From positions 1 through 64,000 of the forward strand of contig CAVWLW010000057.1 in the NCBI GenBank assembly GCA_963755715.1: a stretch of DNA of 64,000 bases, in the 5' to 3' direction. Position numbers and translations under genes: made by a program. Positions 44,056-52,413 of this stretch are shown here, piece by piece. The notes beneath the pieces are model-generated. The model saw only the letters and a program-made list of their open reading frames with translations, did not search any database and was not told the DNA's origin. This stretch comes from an uncultured delta proteobacterium (GTDB taxonomy: Bacteria; Desulfobacterota; Binatia; UBA9968). The stretch's first letter is position 1. Every line of letters starts with the position of its first letter.

Positions 44056-45279
44056 TCAGCTCTCGCCGCCCAACCGGACTAACGCCGCCTTGATGCTCGA
44101 GCGCATGCGTTCGAGCGCGCGCGATAGTTCGCCGAACTCGCTTTTGTCGTCGGTCCCCAGCGCGGGAGCATCGAGATCGCCGCTGCTGATTCGGTGCGCC
44201 GCTCGGACCAAACGCAGGATCGGCCGATTGATTCTCCAAGCGAGATAAACGGCCATCAAGACGCCGCCGCCAACTACGAGCAACAGAACTTTGACAAGCG
44301 GCATCACGTCTCGATTGATCTCGGAGGTGATTTCATCACGCCATAACCCAAGCCGCACTGCGCCGATTTTACCATCCATCACCGGTACGGTCACTTCATA
44401 GACAACGCCATCGCCCAGTCGAAAACTCCGCTGGCTCTCGGCCCGGATGTCGCCCAAGGCTGTCGTGTTTTGAACTTCCTCGGGCAAGATGTCTAAACTG
44501 TGAGCGAAGATTTTACCGGCGCGATTCTGCACAATGATATAGGCCACCTCCGGTTGATTGACGTGCTTGCGCAATAGTTCGCGGAGCCCTTTGGCGTTAT
44601 TTTTAAATAGATACCCGGCCGCATTGTCGCCGACGTTGATCGCCGTCAGCCGAGCCCTTTCAATCACCTGCCGGCGCAGCGAAGCGAACAGTGTAAAATG
44701 AACCAGAAAAATCGTGAATAGGCCGAACATCGCAACCACGCCGGTGAAACTAACAACCAGCCGGCACGTTAGGCCGTACCTGTACGACGCCCAGCGTGCC
44801 CACACGCTGCTCGGCGCAGATCGGCGTCTCCCCAATGCGAAATCGGCGCGGGTCTCGGCTGAGGCGATGGGCCGCTCGGAATAAGTTTCTTCGGTTTGAG
44901 CGTTTTGCCGCCACTGGCGGTTTCGGACTATGACTACTTCCGGTGCTTGGACAATGTTTGACCGGGCCGGAGCCGGCATTTTTCGCGAGCGCTCTTCCTT
45001 GATGATGTACAGAGCCGAAATGATGGCCCGCAACGCCAGGAAGATACCACAGACGCCGAGCACTCCATAAAAGAACGATTCCAGTCCCACGCTGGCCAAC
45101 CAGGCTCGCCCACCAACCGGCTCATTGAAGCTCTTTGCTGAATTAACGCCGCTCTTCTGCGGCGTTGAGAGTTCCGCCAAGGTTATCGAATTGCTTCGCT
45201 CGAAGTATGCGAGCAACACGGCAAAGGATCCAAAGGCGAGAATGAAAATCAAAGTCAAAATGAAGAAACGGCTTCTCAT
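44056..45279 (-). CDS. membrane protein with sensor-like domain and C-terminal HAMP, no output domain
   Basis: 4 TM segments; HAMP PILRLVRAAHRISSGDL..EFGELSRALERMR, then stop. Confidence 0.78.
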   Translation of the reverse strand: MRSRFFILTLIFILAFGSFAVLLAYFERSNSITLAELSTPQKSGVNSAKSFNEPVGGRAWLASVGLESFFYGVLGVCGIFLALRAIISALYIIKEERSRKMPAPARSNIVQAPEVVIVRNRQWRQNAQTEETYSERPIASAETRADFALGRRRSAPSSVWARWASYRYGLTCRLVVSFTGVVAMFGLFTIFLVHFTLFASLRRQVIERARLTAINVGDNAAGYLFKNNAKGLRELLRKHVNQPEVAYIIVQNRAGKIFAHSLDILPEEVQNTTALGDIRAESQRSFRLGDGVVYEVTVPVMDGKIGAVRLGLWRDEITSEINRDVMPLVKVLLLVVGGGVLMAVYLAWRINRPILRLVRAAHRISSGDLDAPALGTDDKSEFGELSRALERMRSSIKAALVRLGGES

Positions 45280-45578: not shown

Positions 45579-46694
45579 CTAGATCAGTTGGTTTTGATCG
45601 AGACGGCTCATCACCGCGCGCAAGCTGGATCGCATCCGCTCCAACGATCGCGCGATCTCGCCGATTTCGTCCGCGCGCTTGAGTTGGAGGGGCACGCCGA
45701 ATTCGCCTTTACTGATTCGGTCCGCATGCTGGACAAGATCAAGGAGGGGCCGATTTAGAGACCACGCGATGTAGACGAATGCCACCGAGATGCCAAGGAG
45801 CGCAACCGCCATCATTGCGACCATCGGTGCCAAAGCGCGCCGCGATTCCGCTTCAATTATCCCGCGCCAAAGACCGAGATGAACGAAACCTTGTCGGCCG
45901 CTACCAACGCGTTTGGCAACTTCATATACGGCCGAGCCGCGATATTGGACCACAGCACCGGGCAACGCGCGTTCGGCCGATCTGGGAAAATCTCGATCCA
46001 AATAGATCGGCAAGTCCTTGGGATGGTGTACGATGATCCTGCCTTGAGCGTCCTCGATAAAAATAAACGCGACCCCGTCTATCGAAGCGTACTTGGCAAT
46101 TATGTTGGCAAGGCTCTGAATCGTTCCCGCTGCCAGATTGCGTGTTGCGATTTCATTGATGCCAAACGCCATGTCATCAGCGCGACTCTCGACTTGCTTG
46201 TCCATAACCCGGCTTAGAAACCCGTAAACGATGATGCCGGCGCTGATGCCGAAGAAAATACCGACCGCGCAAAATGAAACCGTCAGCTTGCCGAGCAAGC
46301 CGTATTGACGCCGTTTGTTTTGTGGCGGCTCTTCAGCGCTAGGCAGCGCGCCCGTCGGCTTGTTCTCGACGTACGCTGTCGGCACCGCGCCTGTAGGTAT
46401 AGCGGCATCCGGCTCGGGGGTCGCTTCTCTCATGGCCCTTTTTGCGCGGGTTACGACCAATAAAAGGGAAAATATCGCCGCGCCGACTATCGTCACCGGG
46501 ACAACTATGTCATTCATCCAACCGTAGTTGGTGCGGTCGAGCGCGGGGGCGAAAATCGCGCCGAATATCGAGACAACTTTTCCTAGTAGGCCGACCACGC
46601 TCCAATGCGAATCGGTAAAATAGAGATAATCTGCCAGTAATCCGCAGAACACGATCGAAAGGATGGTGGGACCGATTAATCGTCGCTTATTCAT
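45579..46694 (-). CDS. paralogous membrane HAMP-only protein
   Basis: 4 TM segments; HAMP PLLDLVQHADRISKGEF..DEIGEIARSLERMR, then stop. Confidence 0.78.
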   Translation of the reverse strand: MNKRRLIGPTILSIVFCGLLADYLYFTDSHWSVVGLLGKVVSIFGAIFAPALDRTNYGWMNDIVVPVTIVGAAIFSLLLVVTRAKRAMREATPEPDAAIPTGAVPTAYVENKPTGALPSAEEPPQNKRRQYGLLGKLTVSFCAVGIFFGISAGIIVYGFLSRVMDKQVESRADDMAFGINEIATRNLAAGTIQSLANIIAKYASIDGVAFIFIEDAQGRIIVHHPKDLPIYLDRDFPRSAERALPGAVVQYRGSAVYEVAKRVGSGRQGFVHLGLWRGIIEAESRRALAPMVAMMAVALLGISVAFVYIAWSLNRPLLDLVQHADRISKGEFGVPLQLKRADEIGEIARSLERMRSSLRAVMSRLDQNQLI

Positions 46695-46928: not shown

Positions 46929-48215
46929 TCAAGCGGATTTGTCATCGAGCTGTAAAGCCGCCAGCGCTTTTTCGATCAACAGGCGTCGGACTTTCTTTTC
47001 CTCCGCCGCCGATACTTTGGCATCGCCCACAACGTGAACAATGCCGTTACCAAGCACCAGTCGATTCGCGCCGACCATCTGGGCGACGGACAGCGCCGAG
47101 GTAATTTGCACGGTGGGGATACCCGCCTTCTCCAACTCGGTTGTGATCGCAGCGCCGCTGCGCGTGCTCGTCCCTCACGTGGAAGTAAGGATGACGGCGT
47201 CGATACCGAGTCTTTTTACCTTGTCGGCCATCTCGCGTCCCATGCGCCGCGTATTCGATAATGGGTTGGCCAAACCGGAAGTTGAAATAAATTCGTCGCA
47301 TAGCGCGCCGATGGCGCCCTCACTTTCAAGCTCGCGCAGGACATCCAACGGCACGAGGCGGTCGGGATCTTGCCGGACGAACTGCGGATCGTAGCCGCCG
47401 TGTGAAATCTCATAGTCTTCGCTCTTCAAGTCGTCGCAATCTTTAATGCTATACGAACCCCAGCGTGTTGCCGCCGAGCCTTGGATCTTGTCGGGATTGC
47501 CCTTCGGTACCAAGCCGCCGTCGGTAATCAACATCACCTTCGCGTTCCGCAAGTCTTTGATGCCCGCAGGCATGGGCACCGGTTGAAACGTCGCCGGCGC
47601 CATTTCCGTCTCGAACGGCTCGCCTCGGGTTTTCGCGAGCACCATTTCGACCAGCCGCTCAGCAGCGCTCTTTTCAACGAACTGATCGCGGATCAGACCG
47701 CGCGCAATATAACCCTCCTCGGCGGGAAAACCGATTGGCTCGTGGCGCATCAATTTGACCGCGAGATGCGCCATCTTCTCCAACACGTCGCGCATCCGCG
47801 CCGCGCTGTCGCCGCTGTCGATGATGTACAGCGGTTCGCGATAAAGATCCGCGCCGGGATTTTCCCGCGCCATACCGGTCACCACCGGGATGCCGATTTG
47901 CGATTGTACCGCCGAACCAAGCGCACCCGCGGCCACGCCATATCGCCCGGCCAAAAAACAGGGTCCGGCGACGAACAAATCGGCCTTGCACGCGCGAATT
48001 TTTTCCAACGCCGCAGCAATCAACGACTCTTGATTCTCGACCGCGTAGTTGTCGCCGCAGATAAGGGTCATCACCAGTCGGGCTTCGGCCCCAAGCAACT
48101 GCTCCAGAAGCTTTCCGGGACCTATCGCACCGTCGCGCGTCTCGAGCGGAGTCCCCGCTTTCTCTTCCCCGCCAAGTCCGCCGAAGAACTGATTTAGATA
48201 ATGAATGACGCGCAT
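46929..48215 (-). CDS. grdB: glycine/betaine/sarcosine reductase selenoprotein B-like (Sec at TGA 47175-47177)
   Basis: HYLNQFFGG.GGEEKA, ICGDNY, AGPCFLAGRYG, GGLVPKGNPD, HGGYD, DPDRLVPLD; ORF 47175..48215 ends ILTST-TGA and continues in frame as GTSTRSGAA..ELEKAGIP (ORF 46929..47135). Confidence 0.9.
47148..47162 (-). other. bacterial SECIS-like hairpin of grdB
   Basis: CGCAGC-GGC-GCTGCG starting 13 nt after the UGA, with G as the first loop base. Confidence 0.7.
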
Positions 48216-48308: not shown

Positions 48309-49583
48309 TCAATACACCATCGATCTTAGCCGCGACGCGCCCTGTTGGTTCGCAACGCCGACCACGTTCAGCGATTCAATTTCGAACGGTCCGGCAAGCA
48401 ATTCGGCCAGGCCGCTGTTCGCCGCGATCACGCGCTCGACCGGGGGCAGAGTCCAGTTCGTGCTATTGCCGCCAACGCAAACAATCGCGTTCACCTCAGG
48501 AAAATTGAACAACAGCGCCGACTCGACGCGATGATCGCGCGCCAGATCGGTAACCTGCACGGCGGTCTTGATGCCGTCGCATTCCAATAGCCGCGCTGTT
48601 TCGGATAAATCGGTGTGTGGCACTCCGCCGCCGAATTTTGTCAGCACTGCAGCATCGGCTCTGAGCGCCCATTTGACCAGATTGGCGCTAAAGCGCGTGT
48701 TGCGCTCTCGGTCGAAGTTATTAGCCGAGGCGATGGTCGCGACCGTGCCGACAAAATTTATTTCATCCGCTCGATGGCGCCGATAGAGTTCCAGAATCAC
48801 CGGATGGTTTTGATAAAAATAAGTTTCCGCGCCGCCGAGCGAGGTGTGATACGAGGTTACGACTGCGCCATCGAGCCATTCATTCGGATGCAGCAGAGTT
48901 GGCAGCAAGCCGTCGGTGTCCGCGCCGTAAATAATCTGTTCATCGGCTTCCGGCTTTCTCTGGCGTGAAAAAATTTGCCCGATATAAGCGATTCGCGGCA
49001 ACCCGCTTCTGTCGCCTGGGGCGGCAAGCTCGAAGGTCTCCGCGCGCTCGGGTGACTTGTCGAAAGCCGCCCGCGCCAAATGCACGGCGACTTTCAATTG
49101 CGCGGAGCGATAAGCTTTGTGGCGGGAATGGATCGGCAAATCGCCGCGCGTATGCGGGATGACGATCAAATGATGCAAAGCCGCGTAACGCGAGCCCGCC
49201 GCCGCGGCGCCGCTCATCTCCAAAACATAACCGGTGGCGCCACGGGAATCGCCGGGCGATTCTTCGCGCAATGCGGTGACCGCTGCACCCGACAAGACAT
49301 GGGTCGTGCCATTGCCGGCCGTCTGCGGCGGACCGATAATACCTGGCCAATCGGGACTTCCGCCCGGCGCCTTAGCTCTCGGCTCGACGATATCGAAGAT
49401 CGGTCCCGCGCGGCAACTCTCGCCGGGGCGCGCGATCTGAAAGTCGACGGCTTCGATCGCGCCATCTTCGAGGATCAATCGGCTGAGCTCCGCTGCGTCG
49501 ACAACTAGCCTCTTCCCTTCGAGATCGAGTCTTTTTCCAAAACAGATTTCCGTGATCGGGTGGATGGCAAGTGTCAGCGGCAT
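48309..49583 (-). CDS. grdE: glycine/sarcosine/betaine reductase component B proprotein-like (GrdE/GrdI family)
   Basis: IARPGE..DIVEPRAK, GTTHVLSGAAV, PTLLHPNEWLDGAV, TYFYQNHPVI.ELY, ADAAVLTKFGGG, AIVCVG; directly upstream of grdB. Confidence 0.82.
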   Translation of the reverse strand: MPLTLAIHPITEICFGKRLDLEGKRLVVDAAELSRLILEDGAIEAVDFQIARPGESCRAGPIFDIVEPRAKAPGGSPDWPGIIGPPQTAGNGTTHVLSGAAVTALREESPGDSRGATGYVLEMSGAAAAGSRYAALHHLIVIPHTRGDLPIHSRHKAYRSAQLKVAVHLARAAFDKSPERAETFELAAPGDRSGLPRIAYIGQIFSRQRKPEADEQIIYGADTDGLLPTLLHPNEWLDGAVVTSYHTSLGGAETYFYQNHPVILELYRRHRADEINFVGTVATIASANNFDRERNTRFSANLVKWALRADAAVLTKFGGGVPHTDLSETARLLECDGIKTAVQVTDLARDHRVESALLFNFPEVNAIVCVGGNSTNWTLPPVERVIAANSGLAELLAGPFEIESLNVVGVANQQGASRLRSMVY

Positions 49584-49611
49584 GAAAGAACCCTGCAAGA
49601 AATTTGATATG

Positions 49612-51576: not shown

Positions 51577-52413
51577 ATGTCACGACCCGAAAGAGTCGAA
51601 GAATCCCTGCCCGCCTTCGAAGCCTTCGTCAATTATTCGGTCGATACCGGTGAGAAGCCCGCCAGCTACGGCGGCATCAACACTTTCGAAGCCGACAAAA
51701 AGCGCACAGGGAAGTATCAAGAATACAAGATGCCGATCTACAATGGCCGGGCAATCGCCAACAATCTCTCACTTGAAAGAGAGGGATTTATCCTTGTTCG
51801 CCATGACACCAGGGTAAAAGATTTTTACGAAGAGAGTGAAATCCGTTCGGTTTACTATCCGGAGATCGAGCAGCTGGTAAAGCAAACTGCCGGCGCGAAA
51901 AGAGTTCTGGTGTTTGACCACACGCTCCGCTCGGCCGACAGCGCAACCCGCGAAGCGAAACAGATCAGCGGTCCGGTGCGCAATGCGCATAATGATTACA
52001 CCGAATGGTCGGGACCTCAACGCGTGCGCGACCTATTGCCGGGCGAAGCCGAGGAATTGCTCAAGCGCCGCTTTGCTGTCGTCCAGGTGTGGCGTCCCAT
52101 TCGCCATCCAGTGCAAAGAGAACCTCTGGCCATTGCCGACGCGAGAAGCATCGGCATGAAGGAGCTATTTCCCAGCTCGCGCGTTTACCCGGACCGGGTC
52201 GGTGAGGTGTATCATTGCGCTTATAACCCGGAACACCGTTGGTATTACTTTCCCAATATGCAGCGTCACGAAGCAGTGGTGTTCAAAACCTTCGACTCGA
52301 TAAAAGACGGCCGCGCCCGGTGGACGGCTCATACGGCCTTCGACGATCCAACCAGTCCGCCCGATGCCCCACCGCGGGAAAGCATCGAGATGCGAACCTT
52401 GGCTTTCTTCTGA
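51577..52413 (+). CDS. CmcJ/NvfI-family oxidoreductase (methyltransferase-like annotation)
   Basis: SLEREGF, YYPEIE, FDHTLR, AHNDYT, QVWRPI, PLAIADARS, HTAF, RESIEMR. Confidence 0.8.
   Translation: MSRPERVEESLPAFEAFVNYSVDTGEKPASYGGINTFEADKKRTGKYQEYKMPIYNGRAIANNLSLEREGFILVRHDTRVKDFYEESEIRSVYYPEIEQLVKQTAGAKRVLVFDHTLRSADSATREAKQISGPVRNAHNDYTEWSGPQRVRDLLPGEAEELLKRRFAVVQVWRPIRHPVQREPLAIADARSIGMKELFPSSRVYPDRVGEVYHCAYNPEHRWYYFPNMQRHEAVVFKTFDSIKDGRARWTAHTAFDDPTSPPDAPPRESIEMRTLAFF

Follow-up and report, generated by a model that had tools for sequence, protein, structure and literature searches.

Can a selenoprotein B that lacks both cysteines of the UxxCxxC motif be a genuine selenoenzyme, and does such an enzyme act with the glycine reductase machinery or on its own? 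The question is raised by grdB', a gene on the reverse strand (46932-48215) of a 64,000-nucleotide stretch of DNA, hereafter the window, that comprises positions 1 to 64,000 of contig CAVWLW010000057.1 in the genome of an uncultured delta proteobacterium (GCA_963755715.1; Desulfobacterota, Binatia, UBA9968). A preliminary description, made from the letters of the window, had proposed that grdB' encodes a distinct reductase relying on selenocysteine (Sec) only, in an orphan two-gene module with a different partner. We find that GrdB' is a real selenoprotein B and belongs to a new, widespread subfamily. Together with the product of the neighbouring gene grdE', with which it forms the pair E'B', it is probably the substrate-specific protein B of a glycine-reductase-type system whose GrdA (with a CFVU motif) and GrdC would be encoded elsewhere in the genome.

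An in-frame UGA followed by two serines

Read with TGA as Sec, grdB' is a single frame for a GrdB-family selenoprotein of 428 residues, which starts at an ATG at 48215 with a GGAGG 5 nt 5' of it and ends at a TGA stop at 46931-46929. The in-frame UGA at 47175-47177 encodes Sec347 in the context DAVILTST-U-GTSTRSGAAITT, giving the motif LTST-U-GTSTRSGAA, in which Ser350 (AGC, 47166-47168) and Ser353 (AGC, 47157-47159) replace the first and the second cysteine of UxxCxxC, the motif that passages of PMC6778437 and PMC13188914 give for selenoprotein B after Sec (citing Wagner 1999). The preliminary description had placed the gene and the UGA exactly, and the sequence it had quoted as canonical, UGTCTRCGA, is present in 22 of 28 reference loci of a Firmicutes class and in 6 more distant loci. 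In profile searches GrdB' scores 441.1 bits against PF07355 (GRDB; cut-off 22) and 465.4 bits against TIGR01918 (cut-off 65.45; residues 2-424), which places it in the selenoprotein B family. It shares with that family the UGA at ST-U-G, a selenocysteine insertion sequence (SECIS) hairpin in a genome with Sec machinery, and an adjoining PF09338 subunit; what it does not share is the UxxCxxC after Sec, which reads UGTSTRS here and is likewise missing from all 39 related loci described below.

The serine motif is conserved. A scan of one genome per species gave 48 related loci, of which 39 are at least 54% identical in the best segment and reach the Sec codon; two others, L067 and L073, end before it. 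U-GTSTRSGAA is found in 39/39 (37/37 when L035 and L063, from genomes flagged as unpublished, are left out), and the TGA is kept in four paralogs of the same genome as well. Seven loci at 41-47% identity carry UGTCTRCGA (six) or UGSSTRCGA (one). Over 41 rows, made up of the 39 loci, the window and the paralog on contig C56, the first serine codon is AGC in 35, AGT in 5 and TCC in 1, and the second is AGC in 40 and AGT in 1. Logan contigs from DNA runs of two studies (X1 record 2 and X3 record 17 (1281 nt)) have no differing letter at the UGA or at either serine codon, so that the TGC that would have undone the claim is not seen there. Because the motif is shared by all 39 loci, its codons vary synonymously and two DNA studies agree on it, it is genuine: the Ser-Ser motif is no sequencing error, a pseudogene is excluded, and the clade is under purifying selection.

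The alternative, in which position 47175 is a genuine stop or TGC was misread as AGC, has in its favour that gene callers report a protein of 346 residues and that PMC6778437, in the passage concerned, regards a B component that lacks UxxCxxC as probably a pseudogene. Set against this are the synonymous codon variation and the agreement of the DNA contigs, the 81 further residues that stay open and conserved past the UGA in 39 loci, the covariation in the SECIS stem, and an AlphaFold model of GrdB' (predicted local distance difference test, pLDDT, 91; predicted template modelling score, pTM, 0.58) that is confident over the C-terminal part (mean pLDDT 91); we consider the chance of an artefact vanishingly small.

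Standard annotation was expected to mishandle such a gene, and it does. For the GrdB family as a whole, a database search gave 7446 proteins at E<=0.001 among 7998 scored candidates; the best 120 of these, 76-99% identical to GrdB', are 346-360 residues long, end at the UGA, and bear names that are family-level or guessed ('glycine reductase', 'betaine reductase', 'family reductase selenoprotein B'). The sequence itself recurs in the environment: 0.79-0.88 of its sampled words occur in 14 DNA runs from 11 studies, 12 of these runs being from soil, one from freshwater sediment and one from sediment. The RNA evidence is thin: contigs from two RNA libraries lie over parts of the E'-B' module, and one of them (X16, 177 nt, 9 differences) crosses the UGA; presence in such libraries is no proof of transcription, and gaps in the coverage carry no weight.

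A covarying SECIS hairpin and the Sec machinery

The hairpin CGCAGC-GGC-GCUGCG (47148-47162, reverse strand) starts 13 nt 3' of the UGA, exactly where the preliminary description had placed it. Single-sequence folding of the region is no better than that of shuffled sequences (z = 0.54, not significant), and its support therefore comes from covariation. We aligned 51 sequences (48 distinct), Cys-type relatives and the same-genome paralogs among them; the 6 core pairs are 100% paired throughout, with two-sided changes from C-G to U-A in 7 sequences and from A-U to U-A in 8, and sliding the 3' partner by 1-3 columns never attains that level of pairing. In the A-U/U-A pair, the second Ser/Cys codon (AGC/UGC) contributes its first base and an Ala codon (GCU/GCA) its third. 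The second AGC is thus indeed paired within the stem, as had been claimed, and the change from Cys to Ser therefore came with a compensating synonymous change.

The source genome has the means to read the codon: selA (617 bits), selB (416 bits) and selD lie together on contig C3, and a gene for tRNA-Sec lies on contig C69, so the preliminary description's check for a genome without Sec machinery came out in favour of read-through. The selD gene (C3:71086-72013), with selA and selB directly upstream, consists of two matching pieces with a 20-base overlap; an in-frame TGA stands in the N-terminal one, which makes SelD itself a selenoprotein, possibly frameshifted in the assembly.

A separate clade with an altered set of cysteines

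To what part of the family does GrdB' belong? We built a tree of 53 rows (LG+G4, quick search) that retained 16 of the 40 rows with S..S and all other rows, and took reference labels from 26 loci of one Firmicutes class assigned by NCBIfam. In this tree the S..S rows form a single clade with a Shimodaira-Hasegawa-like approximate likelihood ratio test (SH-aLRT) value of 100, whose sister is a clade with UxxSxxC (SH-aLRT 88), and both are separate from the labelled GrdB, GrdF and GrdH clades. The function-level models agree, in that GrdB' stays below the cut-off of each: 437.6 bits against 602.2 for GrdB (TIGR01917; reference loci 606-734), 477.2 against 800 for GrdF (NF040794) and 427.8 against 775 for GrdH (NF040795; true GrdH loci 791-846). 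The GrdB and GrdF motifs given in the Methods of PMC9751293 are matched by 0/40 clade members, and the GrdB' of the window fails 4 of the 6 parts of that GrdB motif; as a control, the same motifs match 6/12 loci labelled GrdB (TIGR01917) and 2/2 labelled GrdF.

When 24 clade members are compared with 18 UxxCxxC proteins, 9 positions are fixed differently, including Ser350, Ser353, Cys86, Asp232 and Asn317. Cys86 (TGT, 47958-47960, reverse strand), in the sequence GPCF, is Cys in 24/24 S..S rows versus Ala in 17/18 UxxCxxC rows, and at Ala96 (47928-47930, reverse strand) 17/18 UxxCxxC proteins but 0/24 clade members have Cys96. By this comparison three cysteines (96, 350 and 353) have been lost in the clade and one (Cys86) has been gained. 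With the set rebuilt in this way, the role of the clostridial UxxCxxC cysteines must here be fulfilled differently or be unneeded. The proposal of a distinct Sec-only reductase accordingly holds for the distinctness, since the enzyme has its own clade with conserved Sec lying outside the characterised glycine reductases, while the label 'Sec-only' is inexact because of the conserved Cys86. The placement outside Stickland-fermenting anaerobes also stands: the clade is found in metagenome-assembled genomes (MAGs) labelled Binatia, delta proteobacterium, Nitrospinae, Dehalococcoidia/SAR202, Verrucomicrobiia and Chloroflexota, and not in clostridia.

Neither the term 'UxxSxxS' nor a description of such a selenoprotein B was found in the full-text literature, a search that covered neither subscription journals nor supplements. 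A sequence search of the PDB gave no match to GrdB' or GrdE', and a Foldseek search of the PDB with the AlphaFold model of GrdB' returned generic two-Rossmann-domain folds (glycosyltransferases, periplasmic binding proteins and KaiC) at a TM-score of ~0.2, which is uninformative on function.

A partner subunit without the cleavage cysteine

The gene grdE' (48309-49583, reverse strand) lies 93 bases upstream of grdB' and encodes a GrdE/G/I-like substrate-binding subunit of 424 residues (PF09338, 255.3 bits); its start, the ATG at 49583, was picked by alignment, the longest open reading frame beginning at a TTG at 49598. The best NCBIfam matches of GrdE' are GrdG, at 186 bits against a cut-off of 780, and FarE, at 138 against 675. 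Of 41 loci compared, 40 have the E'-B' pair. At the site where self-cleavage forms the pyruvoyl group, canonical GrdE-type partners have SGN-C-V(A/S)ACDK, with cleavage at SGN|C, versus ..TSY-H-TSLGG.. in GrdE', so that His246 (48846-48848, reverse strand) stands in the column of the cysteine. Among 37 clade partners this column holds His in 31, Ser in 3, Asn in 2, Val in 1 and Cys in none, and GrdE' thus has no pyruvoyl-precursor cysteine of the kind found in glycine reductase partners. We therefore predict that GrdE' is unprocessed and would carry no pyruvoyl group. According to the part of PMC10838667 consulted, glycine and sarcosine require a carbonyl for Schiff base formation, and neither FarE nor GrdI is processed to a pyruvoyl protein. 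Taken with the missing cleavage cysteine, this leads us to infer that no Schiff base is required by the substrate. Neither glycine nor sarcosine is likely; among compound classes, a quaternary ammonium, a sulfonium or a halo-acetate seems to us the most plausible.

The same feature invites a simpler reading, in which E'B' is an ordinary betaine reductase of non-clostridial bacteria, orthologous to GrdH/GrdI, with glycine betaine as substrate and a motif that has drifted. GN-C is missing from the GrdH-type partners in L062 and L064 too, as it is reported for GrdI in that part of PMC10838667, and some relatives are named 'betaine reductase' by the Joint Genome Institute (JGI). On the other side stand the NF040795 score, far from those of true GrdH loci, the position of the clade (SH-aLRT 100) apart from the GrdH clade and beside the UxxSxxC clade, its 9 fixed differences from UxxCxxC proteins, and a lack of any betaine transporter among the neighbouring genes scanned. 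That betaine is widespread as an osmolyte counts for this reading; we nonetheless judge it distinctly improbable.

grdA and grdC lie on another contig of the genome

The source genome (G000; 7.4 Mb, 76 contigs, 93.6% complete) has no grdA, grdC, grdD or trx on C57, the contig of the window; their absence from the window, noted in the preliminary description, thus extends to the whole contig, and the thioredoxins lie on other contigs. A single grdA (C69:65256-65690, 181 bits), with the CFVU motif in ATECFVUTAAG, lies directly downstream of an adjoining grdC (C69:65810-67096, 507 bits, cut-off 450; no other contig matches), the pair spanning C69:65256-67138. The last 34 positions of the GrdC model are found in another frame (C69:65710-65811), as would result from a frameshift or from faulty assembly close to the 3' end of grdC; in relatives, model positions 1-476 are in one frame.

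The same association recurs across genomes. We sampled 121 genomes from this class and took as carriers those with a homolog at least 66% identical; there are 11 carriers, all in one order, and 10 of them have grdA with an adjacent grdC, the exception being G081. Among the 110 non-carriers the two genes occur together only in G055, where the contig that bears them also has a GrdB-family gene from outside the clade (41% identical); in G035 the sole match is to grdA, at 22 bits. All five carriers labelled Nitrospinae, Dehalococcoidia, Verrucomicrobiia, SAR202 and Chloroflexota have grdC-grdA, and grdA is present in 26 of 31 further carriers (24/29 without two unpublished genomes; one of the 31, G224, shares contig coordinates with G011 and is probably the same genome), which makes 41 of 47 clade-carrying genomes overall. 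In G047, a closed genome of one contig, grdC-grdA-grdE'-grdB' stand in a row; the grdB' there has the motif UGTSTRS, its product is 70% identical to GrdB', and at E<=1e-30 no other GrdB-family gene of that genome matches. Divergent from this operon is a DUF255 thioredoxin-like gene, a radical-SAM/DUF3641 gene (L080:4680-5642) adjoins it, and a gene for an SthA-like flavoprotein disulfide reductase lies ~3 kb past it. In view of the grdC-grdA pair on C69, its frequency among carriers and the G047 operon, the idea of an orphan with a different partner finds no support. The two-gene module as such is a true trait of the clade and does not mean that the enzyme acts alone.

Several observations weigh against a protein B role with these partners. 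The clade members are known from sequence alone. No grdA or grdC lies within ~8 kb in any of 40 clade loci, which bears out the two-gene module of the preliminary description, whereas 6/6 other loci tested do have grdA or grdC that close. Six of the 47 carriers, all MAGs, have no grdA match; a quality figure is available for one of them, G081 (95% complete, 80 contigs). Most carriers have other GrdB paralogs, and it may be these that GrdA really serves. The classical pathway lacks a part, as GrdD exceeds its cut-off in none of the 121 class genomes and none of the five carriers from other phyla. Some taxonomic labels may, moreover, reflect mis-binning: the grdC-grdA neighbourhood, with genes for an ornithine-cyclodeaminase-family protein, an SthA-like flavoprotein, an SsuA-like binding protein, a macro-domain protein and a HAD-like protein, is syntenic between L116 (labelled Verrucomicrobiia) or L118 (labelled Chloroflexota) and the Binatia loci L010, L119 and L120, which points to recent transfer or mis-binned contigs and tempers claims of taxonomic breadth.

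Part of this could be explained if E'B' were a stand-alone selenoenzyme that cleaves a C-N, C-S or C-halogen bond alone or with some other partner, independently of GrdA and GrdC. The lack of linkage in 40/40 loci, the six carriers without grdA, the loss of the cysteines thought to face GrdA, and recurring neighbours unrelated to Grd (Amidohydro_2, a 278-residue protein, HAMP and NMT1/SsuA-like proteins, and DUF255 in 8 loci) would all fit. They have to be set against the presence of grdA alongside the clade in 41/47 carriers, the finding that the one class-sample non-carrier with strong grdA, G055, itself has a GrdB-family gene, and the G047 module, which sits within a grdC-grdA operon as the sole GrdB-family gene of that genome; on balance a stand-alone enzyme seems unlikely to us.

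Missing GrdD and a possible reaction course

The GrdD model NF040747 has no match in the source genome (93.6% complete), and the class genomes without GrdD include closed ones that have grdC-grdA. In two anaerobic Firmicutes genomes used as a control the model scores 589-602 bits, and it therefore works. A GrdD match is also missing in Effusibacillus and Brevibacillus, which have GrdH-like genes, and in the delta-proteobacterial MAG of L068. Measured against a classical Grd system, the source genome thus has grdA and grdC and no grdD, an arrangement that resembles a GrdD-less Grd system. We looked for a substitute for GrdD adjoining grdC-grdA in 16 loci, where SthA-like flavoproteins (in 5), HAD-like hydrolases, a macro-domain protein and an SsuA-like binding protein are seen, and none was convincing. 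The cysteine of protein C that forms the acetyl thioester belongs to GrdD; if this is right, the last steps must differ here. The outcome that the preliminary description had regarded as fatal to its proposal, a complete grdACD set elsewhere in the genome and homologs that cluster inside the characterised reductases, was thus encountered in part, in that grdA and grdC exist, and not in the rest, as there is no GrdD and the clade is separate.

If E'B' does serve as a protein B with GrdA and GrdC, a link drawn from co-occurrence and one operon, the chemistry can be sketched by homology. A substituted acetate, X-CH2-COO-, would be bound without a Schiff base; the selenolate of Sec347 would attack the α-carbon, expelling X and forming a carboxymethyl-selenoether; the carboxymethyl group would then, as co-occurrence and the operon suggest, be handed to the Sec of GrdA, where the GrdA cysteine could resolve the carboxymethyl-selenoether on GrdC. 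The fate of the acetyl group is probably unlike the classical acetyl-phosphate route, since GrdD was not found, and putative donors for the re-reduction of GrdA are thioredoxin or a nearby flavoprotein disulfide reductase. That several B components share one A/C set would be nothing unusual, being a known pattern according to the consulted part of PMC10838667.

More tentatively, and with less than even confidence, we can imagine a selenium-dependent, non-Stickland pathway made of a UxxSxxS protein B, GrdA and GrdC without GrdD, widespread in soil and marine Binatia, Chloroflexota/SAR202, Nitrospinota and their relatives, that would reductively cleave an abundant X-CH2-COO- compound (for instance a betaine, sulfonio-acetate or halo-acetate), release the acetyl group by a route other than acetyl phosphate, and use Cys86 in place of the UxxCxxC cysteines.

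Whichever substrate applies, UxxCxxC has been regarded as a required signature of selenoprotein B, and here a large clade, numerous in public collections, keeps Sec and SECIS with neither of these cysteines nor Cys96. The Sec chemistry of the family can hence do without the UxxCxxC cysteines, and the clade offers a natural variant for probing their role. The clade and the missing GrdD are signs of Grd-type selenium chemistry among lineages of soil and ocean not known for Stickland fermentation, where automated annotation at present ends the protein at the UGA and names it by guesswork.

Paralogs and neighbouring genes

GrdB-family genes number five in the source genome; all have an in-frame TGA, and four different motifs are seen among them. 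Besides grdB', these are C56:1283-2557 (UGTSTRS), C64:97335-98648 (UGTCSRS) and C25:20091-21392 (UGTGTRS), each with its own GrdE-like neighbour, and C14:73320-74598 (UGSSTRC), which is split over two overlapping frames and whose GrdE-like partner is cut to 253 residues; the C14 copy may be decaying or mis-assembled. PhnS/SfuA-type binding proteins adjoin the C64, C25 and C14 copies.

Only the E'-B' pair is constant among the clade loci. Recurring neighbours are two Amidohydro_2 genes, NMT1/SsuA-like and SBP_bac_6/8 binding proteins, a dienelactone hydrolase and a cupin, and, in a second subclade that includes the C56 paralog, the DUF255 thioredoxin-like protein. In the window, two tandem membrane proteins (44056-45279 and 45579-46694, reverse strand) whose sole recognised domain is a C-terminal HAMP, one of them having sCache_3_2 as well, lie just downstream of grdB'; they have no output domain, and the same family is found beside the module in 16/41 loci. 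A 278-residue protein (cluster 4; 51577-52413, forward strand) without a Pfam match is likewise beside the module in 16/41 loci. None of the neighbouring genes scanned names a substrate. The Amidohydro_2 neighbour, which is split in 13 loci, was considered as a second selenoprotein and rejected: it consists of two adjacent genes, with TAA, TAG or TGA ends and no conserved in-frame TGA.

Comparison with known systems

Glycine reductase GrdB/GrdE (TIGR01917) and sarcosine reductase GrdF/GrdG (NF040794) share with E'B' the family, the position of Sec and the two-subunit architecture of the B component. They differ in that GrdB' falls below their cut-offs and leaves the published motifs unmatched, and that GrdE' is without the pyruvoyl-yielding cysteine. 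Betaine reductase GrdH/GrdI (NF040795) resembles E'B' more closely, in family, length, the Sec at STU, a SECIS of the same shape and a partner without the GN|C self-cleavage site, for which no pyruvoyl group is expected; GrdH works with GrdA, and the Effusibacillus and Brevibacillus genomes with GrdH-like genes are alike in having no GrdD match. At 40-45% identity, however, GrdB' has UGTSTRS instead of UGTCTRC, has lost Cys96 and gained Cys86, belongs to a separate clade, and is not encoded beside grdA/grdC.

The UxxSxxC clade, formed by L068 (a delta-proteobacterial MAG), L101-L104 (of the Firmicutes class) and the C14 paralog, is the sister group of GrdB' and its relatives; its first cysteine is already Ser, Asp232 is found in both clades, and the L068 partner also lacks the cleavage cysteine. 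L101-L104 and L068 have UGTSTRC or UGSSTRC, with the first cysteine alone replaced, and score below all function-level cut-offs. Unlike the S..S clade, this group keeps the second cysteine and Cys96, is without Cys86 and, in L068, has grdA and grdC within 8 kb.

The fluoroacetate reductase FarB/FarE of Synergistota (NF053623), as described in the consulted part of PMC10838667, is a GrdB/GrdE-type pair with a non-amine X-CH2-COO- substrate and an unprocessed E subunit, features that we would expect of E'B' as well; it differs in that GrdE' reaches 137.8 bits against the FarE cut-off of 675, and that the E'-B' module contains no antiporter or radical-SAM gene.

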